Assembly: GCF_024700885.2 (NCBI RefSeq)
Contig: NZ_CP117016.1
Length of the DNA stretch: 64,000 nt
Origin: Escherichia coli
GTDB taxonomy: Bacteria > Pseudomonadota > Gammaproteobacteria > Enterobacterales > Enterobacteriaceae
Reading direction: 5' to 3' (one strand)
The notes beneath the pieces are model-generated. The model ran no database searches, had not been told where the DNA came from, and saw only the letters and a program-made list of their open reading frames with translations. Position numbers and translations under genes: made by a program. Within the stretch, counting starts at the first letter, position 1. Each line of letters opens with the position of its first letter. Below, piece by piece: positions 4,689 through 39,289 of this stretch.

Positions 4689-4964
4689 GTGGCTTCTGTT
4701 TCTATCAGCTGTCCCTCCTGTTCAGCTACTGACGGGGTGGTGCGTAACGGCAAAAGCACCGCCGGACATCAGCGCTATCTCTGCTCTCACTGCCGTAAAA
4801 CATGGCAACTGCAGTTCACTTACACCGCTTCTCAACCCGGTACGCACCAGAAAATCATTGATATGGCCATGAATGGCGTTGGATGCCGGGCAACTGCCCG
4901 CATTATGGGCGTTGGCCTCAACACGATTTTACGTCACTTAAAAAACTCAGGCCGCAGTCGGTAA
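4689..4964 (+). CDS. insA: IS1 InsA (transposition repressor)
   Basis: 91-aa [40 protein letters not shown]... recognised as IS1 InsA; GTG start. Confidence 0.95.
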
Positions 4965-5386
4965 CCTCGCGCATACAGCCGGGCAGTGACGTCATCGTCT
5001 GCGCGGAAATGGACGAACAGTGGGGCTATGTCGGGGCTAAATCGCGCCAGCGCTGGCTGTTTTACGCGTATGACAGTCTCCGGAAGACGGTTGTTGCGCA
5101 CGTATTCGGTGAACGCACTATGGCGACGCTGGGGCGTCTTATGAGCCTGCTGTCACCCTTTGACGTGGTGATATGGATGACGGATGGCTGGCCGCTGTAT
5201 GAATCCCGCCTGAAGGGAAAGCTGCACGTAATCAGCAAGCGATATACGCAGCGAATTGAGCGGCATAACCTGAATCTGAGGCAGCACCTGGCACGGCTGG
5301 GACGGAAGTCGCTGTCGTTCTCAAAATCGGTGGAGCTGCATGACAAAGTCATCGGGCATTATCTGAACATAAAACACTATCAATAA
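4883..5386 (+). CDS. insB: IS1 InsB frame; the transposase InsAB' is made by a -1 frameshift at the TTAAAAAACTC motif near 4936-4946
   Basis: 167-aa ORF matching InsB; A6C slippery motif present in the insA/insB overlap. Confidence 0.9.
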
Positions 5387-5638
5387 GTTGGAGTCATTAC
5401 CCAGTCTGTCGATGACATTACAATGCCAGGATGGGCTTTATCTTCACGTTGTGCTATCGCGGTGTGAGAGGTGCAACTGCCGCCAACGTTAGGTTATACT
5501 GTCATCTCACCGTGTAACTTAACGTGACAGTTACTAAGGGCGGATCACAATGGTAGAACTCCTAAGCAAATTAAATAGGTAACTGTTTAAGTTGCTGACA
5601 GAGAAGACTTTTTTGGTCTTCTCCACCTGGGGAGATTC

Positions 5639-5712
5639 TGGAGCGGGCGAAGGGAATCGAACCCTCGTATAGAGCTTGGGAAGCTCTCGTTCTACCATTG
5701 AACTACGCCCGC
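5639..5712 (-). tRNA. glyU: tRNA-Gly (anticodon CCC)
   Basis: Reverse complement reads GCGGGCGTAGTTCAATGGTAGAACGAGAGCTTCCCAAGCTCTATACGAGGGTTCGATTCCCTTCGCCCGCTCCA with encoded CCA. Confidence 0.95.
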
Positions 5713-6567: not shown

Positions 6568-6887
6568 GACGCCATATCATAGCAGCCAGCCTCTGGATAC
6601 CCAATCTCTTGCTTCTCGAAAAACGCGGTAATAGAGAAAGAGGTTAATTTCATTTGGCAAAGGGAAGTATCATCAGCAAAATATTCGCTGCAGAGGTATC
6701 GAATTTCCTGACTTTTTTACCCTATTTCCCATCCTGATGCGTAATAATCCTGATTTATCACATTGATTTTATCGCCACTCATATTGATACGTATCACTGC
6801 CCCTATTCAGAGTCCTGTTTCGTATCATATCTGTGTTTTTTTAACGTCATCACACTTCCTTCCTCCCCTAACGCTTATCGTCGTTTC

Positions 6888-12439: not shown

Positions 12440-12749
12440 AGCTTTACCTTCCAGACTTACTTAAAAGTCGATCATTGAAGACGTTGATGGTTCACAGATC
12501 ATGATGATATTAACTCAGGCGAAATTGGCTTTGATAAAAACATAAGATTTTTATCACTTTCTAATGAAATTATGGAAGAGATATCACATTTCTATATCAA
12601 TATGAGAATTACGGCGGTGAGTTTATCAAACTGAAGAGAGAGCGCCTGTTCCTTTATCTTATTTCTGATACTTAGCAGCAAATAAATAACGCGATAAAAA
12701 AAGCCAAACGTTTTCGTATTTTACAAACAACCAGAAGCTGGCATCAATT

Positions 12750-12765: not shown

Positions 12766-12808
12766 CATTACCCGTCAAATTAGTCTTTTGCAGCCGCTTG
12801 GATAATTC

Positions 12809-12823
12809 TGGCATAGTTATTGT
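12809..12823 (+). promoter_or_regulatory. candidate sigma54 -24/-12 element TGGCATAGTTATTGT upstream of ygeW
   Basis: GG at -24 spacing and TTGT in place of TTGC; about 90 bp upstream of the ygeW start. Confidence 0.3.
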
Positions 12824-12915
12824 TAGTCCCAGGTATAGCTGTGAAAAGACCAATCACTTTTGGCAAGTCACAGTGAAATAAACCTCTTTGCCTGTCATTC
12901 CACTACCGGGACTTT

Positions 12916-14163: not shown

Positions 14164-15360
14164 ATGTCCGTTTTCTCATTGAAGATTGATATCGCCGATA
14201 ACAAATTTTTCAACGGCGAAACATCACCGCTCTTTTCGCAAAGCCAGGCCAAACTGGCGCGCCAGTTCCACCAGAAAATTGCTGGTTATCGCCCAACACC
14301 GCTTTGTGCGCTGGACGATCTCGCAAACCTTTTTGGTGTGAAGAAAATTCTCGTCAAAGACGAATCAAAACGATTCGGTCTGAACGCCTTCAAAATGCTC
14401 GGCGGTGCGTACGCCATCGCTCAATTATTGTGTGAAAAATATCATCTTGATATCGAAACGCTGTCATTTGAGCATCTGAAAAATGCCATCGGCGAAAAAA
14501 TGACCTTCGCGACCACCACCGACGGCAACCACGGGCGCGGTGTGGCATGGGCAGCACAGCAACTCGGACAGAATGCGGTGATTTACATGCCGAAAGGTTC
14601 TGCTCAGGAACGCGTTGACGCCATTCTGAACCTCGGTGCCGAGTGCATCGTCACGGATATGAACTATGACGATACCGTTCGCCTGACCATGCAACACGCG
14701 CAGCAGCACGGCTGGGAAGTGGTGCAAGATACCGCCTGGGAAGGTTACACCAAAATCCCAACCTGGATCATGCAGGGCTATGCAACACTGGCAGATGAAG
14801 CCGTCGAGCAAATGCGTGAAATGGGCGTAACCCCGACGCACGTTCTGCTGCAAGCTGGTGTCGGTGCAATGGCCGGTGGTGTGCTGGGTTATCTGGTCGA
14901 CGTCTATAGCCCGCAAAATCTGCACAGCATTATTGTTGAACCTGACAAAGCTGACTGTATTTATCGCTCCGGCGTCAAAGGCGACATCGTCAACGTTGGC
15001 GGTGATATGGCCACCATCATGGCGGGCCTGGCCTGCGGCGAACCTAACCCGCTGGGCTGGGAAATCCTACGTAACTGCGCCACCCAATTCATCTCCTGCC
15101 AGGACAGTGTTGCCGCATTAGGTATGCGTGTGCTGGGTAATCCGTACGGCAATGACCCGCGCATCATCTCCGGTGAATCCGGCGCTGTCGGTTTGGGCGT
15201 TCTCGCAGCGGTTCATTATCACCCGCAACGTCAAAGCCTGATGGAAAAACTGGCGCTGAACAAAGATGCCGTAGTGCTGGTTATCAGCACTGAAGGCGAC
15301 ACAGACGTGAAGCACTACCGCGAAGTTGTCTGGGAAGGCAAACACGCTGTAGCACCTTAA
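14164..15360 (+). CDS. ygeX: PLP-dependent diaminopropionate ammonia-lyase
   Basis: 398-aa ORF; position after ygeW matches K-12 order; family assignment (Trp-synthase beta / serine dehydratase fold) is from memory of this gene, no specific motif checked. Confidence 0.85.
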   Translation: MSVFSLKIDIADNKFFNGETSPLFSQSQAKLARQFHQKIAGYRPTPLCALDDLANLFGVKKILVKDESKRFGLNAFKMLGGAYAIAQLLCEKYHLDIETLSFEHLKNAIGEKMTFATTTDGNHGRGVAWAAQQLGQNAVIYMPKGSAQERVDAILNLGAECIVTDMNYDDTVRLTMQHAQQHGWEVVQDTAWEGYTKIPTWIMQGYATLADEAVEQMREMGVTPTHVLLQAGVGAMAGGVLGYLVDVYSPQNLHSIIVEPDKADCIYRSGVKGDIVNVGGDMATIMAGLACGEPNPLGWEILRNCATQFISCQDSVAALGMRVLGNPYGNDPRIISGESGAVGLGVLAAVHYHPQRQSLMEKLALNKDAVVLVISTEGDTDVKHYREVVWEGKHAVAP

Positions 15361-20760: not shown

Positions 20761-21531
20761 CTAATTCACAAATCTGCGCGCGATTGCAGGATGTTCTTGT
20801 ATATCGCCCAGCCAGATTGCCTCTACGTCGTGTTGTTGCAGCGGTTGAAGGAGCTCGCTTTGTGCAATCGCATTCTCACATTGAGAAAAACGGTTAATGA
20901 ACCAGACTCGCCGACAACCTTGCGGTACGTTTTTAAATGCGCCCTGAGGGTGGCGAACCAGCGCAACGAGATCGCTCAGTTGCAAGGTTGCATCAGGTGT
21001 TAACCCGGTAATATCAGCAAACTGCGACCAGCGATGGACATTTTCTGTGCTCACTTTCGCGCCCAAAATATGTCCTCCCATCACAGCAATCACGCAGCAA
21101 CTGCTTTTGGGTATGCAAGGTTCGTGCTCATCAGGCGCTTTTAACGTCATTCCACGCGAGCCATCTGCCTCAATGAGAATTACGTCACACTCTGGTCGTT
21201 GCACCAGTGCATCAATCGCTTCTGGCGTAAATCCCTGCACTTTTCCCTGGTTCGCTTTCCAGCTGTGAAAACAAAATGAAATGGGGGATGTAAGAGACGC
21301 ATGAGGAAGCATGGCGGGATCACGACAGAAAACCACGGGCCAGTGAGACGTTGGCATAAACATATGTGTCGTCGTAGTGATTAACACACGCCTGCCGCTA
21401 GCCTGGAGCAGTTCTGCCAGCCAAAAAAGCAAGCTGGTTTTCCCCCCAGCCCCAACAACAGAAATCACAGTGGGACGTTTCTGCGCGCCTAAATCAATGA
21501 ATAATGCCGATGGGTCAACTATACTTTTCAC
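20761..21531 (-). CDS. yqeC: selenium-dependent molybdenum hydroxylase system protein (YqeC family)
   Basis: 256-aa ORF with P-loop-like VVGAGGKTS; synteny. Confidence 0.75.
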   Translation of the reverse strand: MKSIVDPSALFIDLGAQKRPTVISVVGAGGKTSLLFWLAELLQASGRRVLITTTTHMFMPTSHWPVVFCRDPAMLPHASLTSPISFCFHSWKANQGKVQGFTPEAIDALVQRPECDVILIEADGSRGMTLKAPDEHEPCIPKSSCCVIAVMGGHILGAKVSTENVHRWSQFADITGLTPDATLQLSDLVALVRHPQGAFKNVPQGCRRVWFINRFSQCENAIAQSELLQPLQQHDVEAIWLGDIQEHPAIARRFVN

Positions 21532-22212: not shown

Positions 22213-22366
22213 AAAATGTAGTTAAACGATTGCGTTCAAATATTTAATCCCTCCAGCACTCTTTATCATAATGATAAGGAATCACTGATTTTGAGAAAAG
22301 AGAAAAAGTGATAAATGGGCTGGCAATAATAATTTTCAGGAGTGATTTTAATTCTCATTTGGCACC

Positions 22367-22382
22367 TGTGAGTTCATTCACA
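22367..22382. promoter_or_regulatory. CRP binding site TGTGAGTTCATTCACA upstream of ygfK
   Basis: Perfect match to both CRP consensus half-sites TGTGA-N6-TCACA. Confidence 0.55.
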
Positions 22383-34965: not shown

Positions 34966-34997
34966 ATTCTCCGCGCCTTTCAGCGCGGAGATTTCTT
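34966..34997 (+). terminator. terminator after ghxQ
   Basis: TCTCCGCGC-CTTTCA-GCGCGGAGA hairpin followed by TTTCTTTC. Confidence 0.55.
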
Positions 34998-35489
34998 TCA
35001 CAGAGGATTCTCACCGCTGGCAACAATACGCTGCTGGCGGACTCGCCTGAGTTCTCTTTCAGTAAGCAACTGCAGCGCCTGTGTTGGGCAAGATTCAACG
35101 CAGGCTGGCCCCTCTTCCCGCTGTTCACAGAGATCGCATTTCACGATTTGTTGCCGGGTATCCCCCGGCAACGACTGAATGGTGATCATTCCAAACGGGC
35201 ACGCACTGACGCAACTCTGACAGCCAATACAACGGGCAGAATTGGTCTGCACCACCTGCTCGCCCATCGTCAGCGCCCCCACGGGGCAAGCGCCAACACA
35301 AGGGGCGTTTTCACACTGATGGCACATCACCGGCGCACTGATGCTGTCCAGTCGCTGTACCTTCAGCCGGGGTAAAAAGACATCGGCATTCAACTCCTGT
35401 TCTGAAGGGTGAGCGACCACACAGGCTACTTCACAAGTACGGCAGCCAATACAGTCAGCCGGATTAACGATAATTAACGATTTCATCAC
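34998..35489 (-). CDS. ygfS: 4Fe-4S ferredoxin-type protein
   Basis: 163-aa ORF with several CxxCxxCxxxCP motifs. Confidence 0.85.
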
Positions 35490-37405
35490 GATGCCTTCGT
35501 ATCAAACAGAGTTAACATATCGCGCGCCGCCTGCCTTCCTGCGGCCATTGCAGTGACAACCAGATCCGCGCCATGAACTGCATCACCACCAGCAAAGACT
35601 TTTTTCAGATGCGTCTGGGTAGGTAAATACCCGACGTCACCGGTTTGAATCAGGCCCCATTTATCGAGTTTAATTCCGCTGCCCTGCAACCACGGCATGG
35701 CATGCGCCTGGAAACCAAAGGCCATAATGAGAACATCGGCGGGCAATTCAAACTCTGAACCCGCTACCGGACGAGGACGACGGCGACCATCCGGCCCCGG
35801 CTCCCCCATGGCGGTACGAATCAGGCCCACTGCAGTTAAACGCCCATCTTCGTCACAAGCGATATATTGCGGCTGAACATTGAACTGAAACTCGACACCT
35901 TCCTCGCGCGCATTGACCACCTCTTTGCGCGAGCCCGGCATACTGACTTCATCACGACGATACGCGCAGGTCACGCTGGCGGCATTGAGGCGGATGGAGG
36001 TCCGCAAACAATCCATGGTCGTATCGCCACCGCCCAATACCACGACTCGCTTACCTTCCACATCCGTCAGCGGATACTCTTCAGACTCCGGCAACCCCAT
36101 GAGCTGGCGGGTATGGGCAGTCAGGAACGGTAGAGCCTGAATGACACCGGGCGCATCTTCATGCGGCAGATCTGCTCGCATCATCCCGTAAGTCCCCACG
36201 CCGATGAAAACTGCATCATATTCAGAAGTTAAATCGCTAAAGGTAATATCGCGGCCAATTTCACAGTTAAGATGAAAGTCGATTCCCATTGCGGTGAATA
36301 TCTCTCGCCGCTGGCTTAATACCGTTTTATCGAGTTTGAAAGGAGGTATGCCAAAAGTCAGCATACCGCCAATTTCTGGATGGCGATCAAAGACATCAAC
36401 CTGAACTCCTGCGCGCGCCAGAATATCAGCACACCCTAACCCTGCAGGCCCTGCGCCAATCACCGCCACTTTTTCGATACGGGGAACAACTTTGCTGACA
36501 TCGGGACGCCAGCCCATCGCCAGCGCGGTATCGGTGATGTAGCGTTCCAGATTCCCGATAGAGACTGCGCCAGAGTGATCTTTCAAAGTACATGCGCCTT
36601 CACAAAGACGGTCCTGTGGACATACCCTGCCGCAGATTTCTGGTAAGGAACTGGTCTGGTGGCAAAGTTCTGCCGCTTCAATAATCTTTCCTTCCTGCAC
36701 CAGACGGATGTAATCCGGAATAGCGTTATGCAGCGGGCAATGCCAGTTGCAGTTAGCTTTTTCGGCGCAATAAACACAGCGGTCACTCTCATAAGTCGCT
36801 TGTTGTGGATCCAGCCCGTAATAGATTTCGCCAAAGTGGGTTTTCCGTTCACTCGCTGAAATGTTATCTGCGCCTTTACGCGAGTTAACGGGGAGCAACG
36901 CTGCACTGCGAGATGGCTGAGCGTCTGATGACGCTTTTCCTGCTGCCGTTTTGCGCTGGCGGGCCACCTTTATCTGCTGCAACCCTTTATCGTCCATCAG
37001 CCGTAACGCCTGTGTTGGGCAGACTTCAATACAGGCTTGCGTGCCGGAACTGCGCTGGTTACAAAGGTCGCATTTCTGCGCAATCGTATCGACCATCTCA
37101 ACGACGCCAAAGGAGCAAGCGATTGCGCATCTTTTACAACCAATACATTTTTGCTCGTCCAGTTGTACGCTATCGGGCTGGAAAGTCAGAGCATTAACCG
37201 GACAAGCCGTAACGCAAGGGGCATTGTTGCAGTGATGGCAGGCCACCGGATTCGCAGCCTGGCCTTTCCCTACAACGTGGATACGCGGTCGAAAGTCACT
37301 GTGACTCAGCGGCCAGTTTTCTTGATTATGTGCCATCGCACAGGCAATTTCACAAGCATGACAGCCTATACATTCCGCAGCTTCAGCAGCGATAAACTTA
37401 TTCAT
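35486..37405 (-). CDS. ygfT: Fe-S / FAD-NAD(P) oxidoreductase (glutamate-synthase-beta-like)
   Basis: 639 aa from MNKFIAAE...; ferredoxin Cys motifs plus [21 protein letters not shown]; alternative start at 37420. Confidence 0.85.
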
Positions 37406-37756
37406 TTGCATCCCTTTCATTTAATGAGTTATGTCTTCTCAAATTTCGCGATGCAATAAATGGGCATATATTAGGTAGCATGGCCGATTTAATTATAATT
37501 TTGCGACTGAGTTCAAATTATTGCCCCTCAATCTGTGCCGCTTTCATTATTTCAACATTGCCGACCAAAAGAGATCTAACCAGATAAAAACGATTAAATA
37601 CGAGAGTGCGACATGCCAGAATGATTAATGAAATATCAATATGAGAAAATTACAGATAATTCCATTGTCAGGTTCTCTTCTCATTTTCGTGGTTTAACCA
37701 CGATTATGTGATTGCCTCCGCAATTCCTGTCTCTAACTCCCCTTCCTCGCAAAAAC

Positions 37757-37771
37757 TGGCACTCCACGAGC
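37757..37771 (+). promoter_or_regulatory. candidate sigma54 -24/-12 element TGGCACTCCACGAGC upstream of uacT
   Basis: Perfect TGGCAC at -24 and GC at the -12 position; about 70 bp upstream of the uacT start. Confidence 0.35.
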
Positions 37772-37840
37772 ATGTGTTTAGACAGTTTCATTAACGTAAA
37801 CGGTTGCTTTTTACTCTGGCGAGCGAAAGGAGAAACACTG

Positions 37841-39289
37841 ATGAGCGCCATAGATTCCCAACTTCCCTCATCTTCAGGGCAAGATCGCCCAACTGATGAG
37901 GTTGACCGCATATTATCACCAGGAAAGCTGATCATACTCGGTCTGCAACACGTCCTTGTCATGTACGCAGGTGCAGTCGCTGTTCCTCTTATGATTGGTG
38001 ACCGACTGGGCCTCTCAAAAGAAGCTATTGCGATGCTCATTAGCTCGGATCTCTTTTGCTGCGGGATCGTCACATTATTGCAATGTATCGGTATCGGCCG
38101 CTTTATGGGGATCCGCCTGCCGGTGATTATGTCGGTGACCTTCGCCGCTGTAACACCAATGATAGCCATTGGGATGAACCCGGATATCGGCCTGCTGGGG
38201 ATATTCGGTGCCACTATCGCCGCGGGTTTTATCACCACATTATTAGCGCCACTTATCGGTCGCTTGATGCCTTTATTCCCGCCACTGGTTACCGGTGTGG
38301 TTATTACTTCTATCGGACTTAGCATCATTCAGGTGGGTATTGACTGGGCCGCAGGAGGTAAAGGGAATCCGCAATATGGTAATCCCGTTTATTTAGGTAT
38401 CTCCTTTGCCGTCTTAATTTTTATCTTGCTCATTACTCGCTATGCGAAAGGATTTATGTCCAACGTCGCCGTATTACTGGGGATTGTATTTGGCTTTTTA
38501 CTTTCGTGGATGATGAATGAAGTCAATTTATCCGGGCTACATGATGCTTCATGGTTTGCGATTGTCACGCCGATGTCATTTGGTATGCCGATTTTCGATC
38601 CCGTTTCCATTCTGACCATGACTGCCGTGTTAATCATCGTGTTTATCGAGTCGATGGGGATGTTCCTGGCACTGGGTGAAATAGTCGGTCGTAAACTCTC
38701 TTCACACGATATTATTCGCGGGCTGCGTGTCGATGGCGTAGGGACAATGATAGGCGGAACGTTTAACAGCTTCCCCCACACGTCATTTTCACAAAACGTT
38801 GGCCTGGTTAGCGTGACGCGCGTTCATAGCCGCTGGGTGTGTATTTCTTCGGGAATTATATTAATCCTGTTTGGCATGGTGCCAAAAATGGCGGTGCTGG
38901 TCGCCTCCATTCCGCAATTTGTGCTGGGCGGTGCTGGGCTGGTGATGTTCGGCATGGTACTGGCGACAGGAATTCGAATTCTGTCGCGCTGTAACTACAC
39001 CACCAACCGTTACAACCTCTATATTGTGGCGATCAGTCTCGGCGTTGGCATGACTCCGACGCTCTCTCACGATTTCTTTTCTAAGTTACCGGCCGTACTG
39101 CAACCGTTGCTGCATAGCGGCATTATGCTCGCAACCCTTAGCGCCGTTGTGCTGAACGTCTTCTTTAATGGCTATCAGCATCATGCTGATCTGGTGAAGG
39201 AATCCGTCTCTGATAAAGATTTAAAAGTCAGGACAGTACGTATGTGGCTTCTGATGCGCAAGCTGAAGAAAAATGAGCATGGAGAATAA
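37841..39289 (+). CDS. uacT: uric acid permease (NCS2/NAT family)
   Basis: 482 aa from the ATG at 37841 (MSAIDSQLPSS...) with AAAGGAG upstream; ORF-track extension from 37712 rejected. Confidence 0.85.
   Translation: MSAIDSQLPSSSGQDRPTDEVDRILSPGKLIILGLQHVLVMYAGAVAVPLMIGDRLGLSKEAIAMLISSDLFCCGIVTLLQCIGIGRFMGIRLPVIMSVTFAAVTPMIAIGMNPDIGLLGIFGATIAAGFITTLLAPLIGRLMPLFPPLVTGVVITSIGLSIIQVGIDWAAGGKGNPQYGNPVYLGISFAVLIFILLITRYAKGFMSNVAVLLGIVFGFLLSWMMNEVNLSGLHDASWFAIVTPMSFGMPIFDPVSILTMTAVLIIVFIESMGMFLALGEIVGRKLSSHDIIRGLRVDGVGTMIGGTFNSFPHTSFSQNVGLVSVTRVHSRWVCISSGIILILFGMVPKMAVLVASIPQFVLGGAGLVMFGMVLATGIRILSRCNYTTNRYNLYIVAISLGVGMTPTLSHDFFSKLPAVLQPLLHSGIMLATLSAVVLNVFFNGYQHHADLVKESVSDKDLKVRTVRMWLLMRKLKKNEHGE

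Follow-up and report, generated by a model that had tools for sequence, protein, structure and literature searches.

A conserved -24/-12-like element upstream of uacT in a candidate bidirectional sigma-54 control region of the Escherichia coli urate cluster

Introduction

The nifH promoter of Klebsiella pneumoniae is an activator-dependent sigma-54 promoter of low occupancy, with a weak -12 region. Closer to the subject of this work are the sigma-54 promoters of the purine/urate cluster of Escherichia coli: those of xdhABC and ygeWXY are known, and the chromatin immunoprecipitation sequencing (ChIP-seq) study of Bonocora et al. 2015 (PMC4591121) includes four sites of the cluster, OS29 to OS32, belonging to xdhA, ygeW, ygfK and ygfT. 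Here we analyse the 435-bp spacer between the divergent genes ygfT and uacT in a 64,000-nucleotide stretch of E. coli DNA (contig NZ_CP117016.1; hereafter the window), and above all a conserved -24/-12-like element facing uacT. We estimate at about 60% the probability that this spacer is a bidirectional control region of the activator YgeV and sigma-54, with two conserved sub-consensus promoters.

Part of this picture has been published. It was shown that the sigma-54 holoenzyme binds beside ygfT, that ygfT expression depends on YgeV (it is reduced in a ygeV mutant), and that the YgeV iModulon contains ygfT and uacT as well as xdhABC, ygeWXY, hyuA, ygfK, ssnA, ygfM and xdhD. UacT is a urate permease (urate:H+ symporter) characterised in E. 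coli, and urate degradation is a gut-microbiome pathway relevant to gout.

The uacT-side element resembles the OS29-OS32 promoters in its GG-N10-GC spacing and its intergenic, gene-facing position, and it has in common with them the candidate activator YgeV, a dyad and CRP-like sites. It differs from them in having AGCA for TGCA at -12 and in lacking a ChIP-seq signal. The ygeW and ygfT promoters are also non-canonical (TTGTT at -12 and TG at -24, respectively), yet these two, unlike the uacT-side element, are weakly bound by sigma-54 (FAT 3; Bonocora 2015, PMC4591121).

Results and discussion

Conservation of the uacT-side element

The features on which the argument depends are, in window coordinates:

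35486-37405, minus strand, ygfT (= uacF), annotated gene with a 639-aa product
37406-37840, the ygfT-uacT spacer, 435 bp between divergent genes
37452-37468, minus strand, ygfT sigma-54 site TATGCCCATTTATTGCA, K-12 counterpart OS32 = TATGCCCGTTTATTGCA
37620-37646, block AATGATTAA-N5-TATCAATATGAGA, conserved across genera, with the dyad T(A/C)TCA-N3-TGA(G/T)A at 37634-37646
37707-37722, CRP-like site TGTGATTGCCTCCGCA, upstream of the uacT-side element at a centre-to-centre distance of 49.5 bp
37756-37772, plus strand, uacT-facing -24/-12-like element CTGGCACTCCACGAGCA, consensus among the taxa CTGGCAY-N5-RAGCAT; conserved, non-consensus as a sigma-54 site
37841-39289, plus strand, uacT (= ygfU), annotated gene, WP_001295374.1
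10661-12439, ygeV, gene of the candidate sigma-54 activator of the cluster

We compared the divergent ygfT/uacT loci of Escherichia sp. E1V33, E. whittamii, Escherichia sp. MOD1, two Citrobacter, Pseudocitrobacter, Raoultella, Kluyvera and one metagenomic relative. Seven or more genera entered the comparison as a whole. Among Escherichia and Citrobacter 50% of the spacer columns are invariant (Citrobacter R56 is 59% identical), and the spacers of Raoultella and Kluyvera are almost unalignable. The islands which survive are the ygfT sigma-54 site, AATGATTAA-N5-T(A/C)TCA-N3-TGAGA, the CRP-like TGTGA-N6-xCxCR and the uacT-side element. The last has 15 of 17 columns invariant in the Escherichia and Citrobacter alignment, and its two halves, CTGGCAY and RAGCAT, are invariant in 11 taxa, Pseudocitrobacter, Raoultella, Kluyvera and the metagenomic relative included, with the GG-N10-GC spacing unchanged in 12 loci, whereas the N5 between them takes five forms (TCCAC, CCCAC, TGCCT, CACCT and TTTCT). 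Such bipartite conservation is the pattern that would be expected of a -24/-12 promoter, not of a dyad operator. Of 5304 E. coli genomes, 5141 carry the 41 bp surrounding the element unchanged; a control block from another part of the spacer has exact matches in only 281.

Distances on the upstream side of the element are fixed or nearly so. The CRP-like site lies 48.5-49.5 bp upstream in 11 of 11 taxa; for the dyad the upstream distance is 121-124 bp, or 133 bp in L023, the metagenomic relative, whereas the distance to the uacT ATG varies from 63 to 129 bp across the 11 taxa. Fixed upstream distances combined with a variable leader point to a promoter module acting at the DNA level rather than to an RNA element. 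We therefore consider it very improbable that uacT lacks its own sigma-54-type promoter, the hexamer being there by chance and its conservation incidental, for example as part of an RNA leader element read from an upstream start. It is true that loose -24/-12 patterns are common, TGGCAC-N7-GC having 10 matches in the window against 3.5 expected, 9 of the 10 intragenic, and that the leader downstream of the element also holds conserved sequence, the PurR-like box. Across genera, however, the leader (63-129 nt) is unalignable, and an Rfam scan of the spacer gave one sub-threshold, meaningless match.

The uacT homologue of Morganella, which has no ygfT neighbour, is preceded by a canonical sigma-54 site (CTGGTCTGAATTTTGCT, 15.6 bits with the matrix described below) and, upstream, by the dyad (TATCAATGTGATA). 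In Erwinia sp. CGal63 (L019, 1-5446) the gene order is ygfK-ssnA-uacT, ygfT is not nearby, and uacT follows ssnA by 20 bp, thus the permease gene is physically joined to the sigma-54-dependent ygfK operon. The ygfT/uacT arrangement is not universal, since the uacT homologues of Hafnia and Edwardsiella stand in other gene contexts; no sigma-54-like site was found at these.

Match to the sigma-54 consensus, and occupancy

An earlier note, made from the DNA sequence, had described a 435-bp divergent region between ygfT and uacT, a length which the annotated coordinates bear out, and in it a sigma54-like element with a perfect -24 hexamer and GC at -12, by implication making uacT sigma-54-dependent. 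The sequence in question, TGGCACTCCACGAGC at 37757-37771 on the plus strand, has the correct GG-N10-GC spacing, and its centre is 77 bp before the uacT ATG; the transcription start site (TSS) is predicted at ~37783, which would give a 5' untranslated region of ~58 nt. Position, spacing and the -24 half (CTGGCAC, a perfect match) were thus described correctly, but the -12 half reads GAGCA instead of TTGCA (AGCA vs TGCA). As a sigma-54 site the element fares worse: its consensus match is poor, it is unbound in the K-12 ChIP-seq and genomic SELEX (systematic evolution of ligands by exponential enrichment; gSELEX) data, and the documented site, OS32, faces ygfT.

To score sigma-54 sites, we built a position weight matrix (PWM) from the 135 ChIP-seq-defined sites of Bonocora et al. 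2015 (PMC4591121). The top-ranked site of the window is the known promoter of xdhA, with those of ygeW and ygfK in second and fourth place; xdhA (15.7 bits) and ygfK (14.7 bits) are strong matches.

Several observations weigh against a sigma-54 promoter in front of uacT. With 5.4 bits CTGGCACTCCACGAGCA ranks only 186th in the window and falls below all 135 ChIP-bound sites, for which the minimum is 6.8 and the median 14.4 bits. The low score is due to the A at -14, a base found in 1 of the 135 bound sites (T in 127), and to the G at -15, found in 5 of them. The K-12 sequence is identical at the element, and no sigma-54 ChIP-seq peak lies near U00096.2 3029311 among either the 135 high- or the 149 low-stringency K-12 sites (PMC4591121). 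The RpoN gSELEX list contains the ygeV/ygeW and xdhB/C regions and lacks the ygfT-uacT spacer. The Cappable-seq supplement, which is possibly partial, has no uacT TSS at the expected position, although the gene is poorly expressed in standard media. Shared iModulon membership does not prove direct control of uacT by YgeV, the CRP-like site taken alone is not significant by sequence, and in the literature searched we found no report of YgeV binding to the dyad. Nor did that search yield a paper mentioning ygfU together with sigma-54.

Judged by its own letters, then, the uacT-side element is not confirmed above chance; what sets it apart from a chance match is its conservation rather than its agreement with the consensus. 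The conservation pattern (bipartite), the fixed geometry relative to the dyad, the Morganella counterpart with its canonical promoter and the co-expression data, i.e. membership in the YgeV iModulon, are the basis on which the implied sigma-54 dependence of uacT can be upheld. On these grounds the element is best explained as a functional, activator-dependent sigma-54 promoter, unusual but conserved, and we think that it probably is one.

In the main rival explanation, the element would instead serve another regulator as its operator, or belong to a CRP-dependent sigma-70/sigma-S promoter, and co-expression with the YgeV module would be indirect. The missing ChIP-seq and gSELEX signals and a PWM score below that of every bound site would be accounted for in this way, there is a conserved CRP-like site just upstream, and CTGGCA shares 4 of 6 positions with the -35 hexamer TTGACA. 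We nevertheless regard this explanation as unlikely. A sigma-70 promoter scan of the 435-bp spacer gave no match, and 16-18 bp downstream of CTGGCA conservation is lost, most taxa lacking the T at -7. The conserved parts are asymmetric, without the dyad expected for a dimeric regulator; they fall exactly at -24 and -12, and the spacer between them is variable in sequence but fixed in length. Finally, the Morganella uacT combines a canonical sigma-54 promoter with the same dyad. In manual trials CTGGCA was also considered as a -35 hexamer and was dropped, no conserved -10 hexamer following it.

The ygfT-side site and the PurR-like boxes

The documented sigma-54 site of the spacer serves ygfT and faces away from uacT. 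OS32 is a ChIP-seq site on the minus strand assigned to ygfT, with FAT 3 and a position-specific scoring matrix (PSSM) value of 4.5 (Bonocora 2015, PMC4591121), and its orientation agrees with the drop of ygfT expression in the ygeV mutant. In the window the site scores 6.2 bits: its -12 half is consensus and its -24 half degenerate (TG vs GG), and across genera the -12 half, TTATTGCATC, is invariant whereas the -24 half is degenerate. The predicted TSS, ~37441, is 36 nt before the ygfT ATG.

Two PurR-box-like sequences are found in this part of the window:

37113-37128, plus strand, GAGCAAGCGATTGCGC, inside the 5' part of ygfT, counterpart of the K-12 motif GGGCAAGCGATTGCGC
37794-37809, plus strand, ACGTAAACGGTTGCTT, in the predicted uacT leader, 3 mismatches to ACGCAAACGTTTGCGT

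In K-12 a PurR region 'ygfT-ygfS' with the motif GGGCAAGCGATTGCGC was mapped to 3028215-3029251 by chromatin immunoprecipitation on microarrays (ChIP-chip; PMC3159470). The box in the uacT leader is covered by a run, 37796-37811, which is invariant in Escherichia and Citrobacter only. These sequences raise the question whether the ygfT promoter is the sole sigma-54 promoter of the spacer, with the YgeV dyad serving ygfT only and uacT being mainly under PurR and CRP. The orientation of OS32 towards ygfT, the PurR ChIP-chip binding around ygfT (PMC3159470) and the PurR-like box in the uacT leader all fit this alternative, but we find it improbable: Pseudocitrobacter, Raoultella and Kluyvera lack the PurR-like box but keep the -24/-12-like element, the PurR-bound region of K-12 stops ~90 bp short of the box (PMC3159470), and uacT is in the YgeV iModulon. 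A box similar to that of the uacT leader occurs upstream of ygeW (~12698-12717), and the region upstream of ygfK carries the published PurR motif AGTTAAACGATTGCGT (~22221-22236).

The candidate YgeV dyad

The dyad is present in all 11 taxa with divergent ygfT/uacT, as well as in Morganella. It recurs in the cluster: TATCAATATGAG(AA), the same 12-15-mer, is found at 37634 in the spacer, at 12595 ahead of ygeW and, in inverted orientation, at 6777-6789 ahead of xdhA. The ygfK upstream region has a perfect dyad, TATCATAATGATA (22264). Matches to the pattern T[AC]TCA-N3-TGA[GT]A number 5 in the window, where 0.18 would be expected, and three belong to sigma-54 promoter regions. Pairwise local alignments of the promoter regions were individually near the null maxima, so it is only by its recurrence and enrichment that the dyad is convincing. 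We infer that it is a candidate upstream activating sequence, which may be bound by the sigma-54 activator YgeV. The remaining matches are intragenic, one in dpaL/ygeX (TATCATCTTGATA, 14440-14452) and one in yqeC (TCTCACATTGAGA, 20874-20886), the latter near the intragenic sigma-54 site IS34 (21114-21130, minus strand), which faces yqeB.

A different kind of operator was considered and rejected. The spacer contains a perfect 15-bp palindrome, CGTGGTTTAACCACG (37688-37702), and a direct repeat, CCACGAnnATGTG (37698 and 37764), which could be viewed as operator half-sites overlapping the uacT-side element. This interpretation was dropped, since matches to the half-site pattern are no more frequent than expected by chance and the palindrome is not kept beyond E. 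coli. The palindrome CGTGGTTTAACCACG can be extended to 16-nt arms, is not conserved in other Escherichia species or in Citrobacter, and is probably lineage-specific.

CRP-like sites

Compared with TGTGA-N6-TCACA, TGTGATTGCCTCCGCA has a perfect left half and a degenerate right half, two mismatches in all, and a scan found 38 matches of this quality where 27 were expected. The TGTGA half and the position of the site (TGTGA-N6-xCxCR) are kept in 11 of 11 taxa. Similar sites are found at other promoters of the cluster, a perfect one at ygfK (22367-22382) and one with a single mismatch at ygeW. The presence of CRP-like sites by these promoters is consistent with the native Crp site of the ygeV-ygeW spacer and with the repression of urate degradation by glucose.

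A possible mechanism

In the arrangement that we propose, YgeV would bind the dyad TATCAATATGAGA in the middle of the spacer and would, via DNA looping, activate the ygfT promoter ~180 bp away and the uacT promoter ~124 bp away. The defect at -12 (AGCA) would lower the occupancy of the uacT promoter by the closed complex, and this low occupancy, attributable to the conserved A at -14, would be the reason for the absent ChIP signal. The uacT promoter would then rely heavily on the activator as well as on the CRP-like site conserved at ~-68, and the latter would account for glucose repression. More tentatively, and with less confidence than we attach to the control region as such, it is possible that a single YgeV-bound dyad drives two divergent promoters both kept sub-consensus, that of ygfT at -24 and that of uacT at -12, with the CRP-like site 49 bp off acting as an architectural co-factor and the -14 A being a functional sigma-54 variant invisible to ChIP-seq and gSELEX.

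Promoters of the nifH type offer a parallel: like them, the uacT-side element is sub-consensus, would form a weak closed complex without accessory proteins, and in our proposal would need an architectural protein as well as a bound activator. The comparison is only an analogy. Should the proposed arrangement be correct, occupancy maps such as ChIP-seq and gSELEX undercount activator-dependent sigma-54 promoters. What would be new is a sigma-54 promoter of the urate permease gene missed by the published genome-wide maps, a concrete candidate for the YgeV binding site common to the promoters of the cluster, and an explanation of glucose repression via conserved CRP-like sites. It would also provide handles for engineering or inducing the urate pathway and an example of conserved sub-consensus sigma-54 promoters.

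Some further sequence features of these promoters can be recorded here. Sub-consensus promoters make up three of five in the cluster (ygeW, ygfT and uacT). The sigma-54 promoter of ygeW (12808-12824) is non-canonical, with TTGTT and without the C at -12; it reads CTGGCATAGTTATTGTT in SMS-3-5 and CTGGCACACTTATTGTT in K-12. CT-rich tracts lie directly upstream of the -24 elements of uacT (TCTCTAACTCCCCTTCCTCGC, 37730-37750) and xdhA (CTTCCTTCCTCCCCTAACGC, 6855-6874), and both the uacT-side element and the xdhA promoter are followed by TTAGAC; the tracts are not kept in Raoultella or Kluyvera. The stretch from the dyad to the ygfT promoter contains an IHF-like sequence, GTTCAAATTATTG (37511-37523, ~-75 relative to the predicted TSS of ygfT; consensus WATCAANNNNTTR), which is perfect in Escherichia sp. 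E1V33 (TATCAAATTATTA) and whose TCAA core is present in 8 of 8 aligned taxa.

YgfT, YgfS and UacT in the urate pathway

ygfS, the third gene considered here, is the downstream neighbour of ygfT:

34998-35486, minus strand, ygfS, annotated gene

The identities and domain content of ygfS, ygfT and uacT are confirmed and were previously known, as was their link to anaerobic urate degradation. The stop codon TGA of ygfT overlaps the start ATG of ygfS, and the two genes form one operon with translational coupling.

The N-terminal domain of YgfT is HycB/HydN-like and has 16 Cys in four clusters. It is followed by Fer4_20 and Pyr_redox_2 (Pfam) in a GltD-like part with GAGPAG at 317; this GltD/NfnB/DPD-like module has two further Fe-S clusters ([4Fe-4S]) and binding sites for FAD (GAGPAG) and NAD(P)H. 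Over its full length YgfT matches the NCBIfam equivalog NF009451 ('formate-dependent uric acid utilization protein YgfT') with 1497 bits, the cut-off being 1154. YgfS, with 162 aa, has 16 Cys forming four [4Fe-4S] motifs and matches Fer4_11 and related Pfam families; it reaches 137 bits against the HydN equivalog, below the cut-off of 260, and is therefore HydN-like but not HydN. UacT belongs to the NCS2 family (Xan_ur_permease in Pfam, E = 6e-124). The earlier note had recognised ferredoxin Cys motifs and a GltD-like Rossmann motif in YgfT, and had called YgfS a poly-ferredoxin; both descriptions hold, given the Cys clusters, Pyr_redox_2 and GAGPAG of the former and the four [4Fe-4S] motifs of the latter.

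Among PDB entries YgfT matches HycB (7z0s_B), GltD (6s6s_G) and NfnI (5jca_L). HycB and HydN correspond to YgfS and to residues 1-130 of YgfT, and GltD, the alpha subunit of NfnI and the N-terminal part of DPD to residues 180-630 of YgfT. Compared with HycB/HydN and GltD/NfnB, YgfT thus fuses both modules in one chain, whereas YgfS stays below the HydN equivalog cut-off. A tblastn comparison found YgfS to be ~45% identical to the N-terminal domain of YgfT, as a paralogue. ygfT is divergent from uacT, with no ygfS downstream, in Citrobacter sp. R56 (L006) and in L023, which is from a JGI metagenome, thus YgfS seems to be a dispensable duplicate of the N-terminal ferredoxin domain of YgfT.

The paralogue AegA has the same three-part architecture as YgfT and near full-length similarity to it (YgfT scores 948 bits against the AegA model), and both have a proposed role downstream of FdhF. 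They differ in that aegA is located elsewhere on the chromosome, without a YgfS-like partner, and is modestly rather than highly induced by urate. AegA and YgfT (UacF) have been implicated in formate-dependent urate degradation, and Iwadate & Kato 2019, as cited by others, proposed that the two proteins accept electrons of formate dehydrogenase H, which they hand on to NADP+ or urate.

The HycB-like four-cluster domains of YgfT and YgfS would, by homology and in line with the published proposal, take electrons from formate dehydrogenase H, and the electrons would run via the GltD-like Fe-S/FAD module of YgfT to NAD(P)+, or straight to the pathway reductases. This reductant would serve XdhD-YgfM and YgfK in reducing urate imported by UacT. 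Biochemical work of 2025 described the reduction of urate to yanthine by XdhD-YgfM with NADH, and the next reduction by YgfK; both are NAD(P)H-dependent reductases in the urate pathway. It counts against the proposed route that XdhD-YgfM was active in vitro with NADH and did not need YgfS or YgfT, and also that the electron-transfer role of the two proteins in urate degradation is itself a proposal. The idea, in the earlier note, of an electron-transfer pair feeding the hydroxylases therefore needs a correction: the pair fits the published proposal, but the enzymes to be 'fed', given the reductions seen in the 2025 work, act here as reductases.

The locus and its distribution

The window matches E. 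coli SMS-3-5 (NC_010498.1) at 100% identity, and 5378 of 5426 complete E. coli genomes have the region. Its other content is the purine/urate cluster: xdhABC, ygeV, ygeW-dpaL-ygeY-hyuA-arcC, yqeBC, mocA, ygfK-ssnA-ygfM-xdhD and xanQ-guaD-ghxQ. Beyond ygfS there is one more feature of note:

34968-34991, T-run on the plus strand, likely terminator, a GC-rich hairpin between the convergent ghxQ and ygfS

The stem of this hairpin has 9 pairs, 7 of them GC, and is followed by TTTCTTTC.

Insertion sequences were seen at two places. In E. coli strain Ch1 (NZ_CP127316.1) the region is interrupted by IS2, so that it matches in two pieces, and a 'solute carrier family 23 protein' fragment is annotated there. 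In the window, according to the annotation, a copy of IS1A (4689-5712) with a tRNA-Gly gene beside it separates yqeH from actS, upstream of the xdh cluster.

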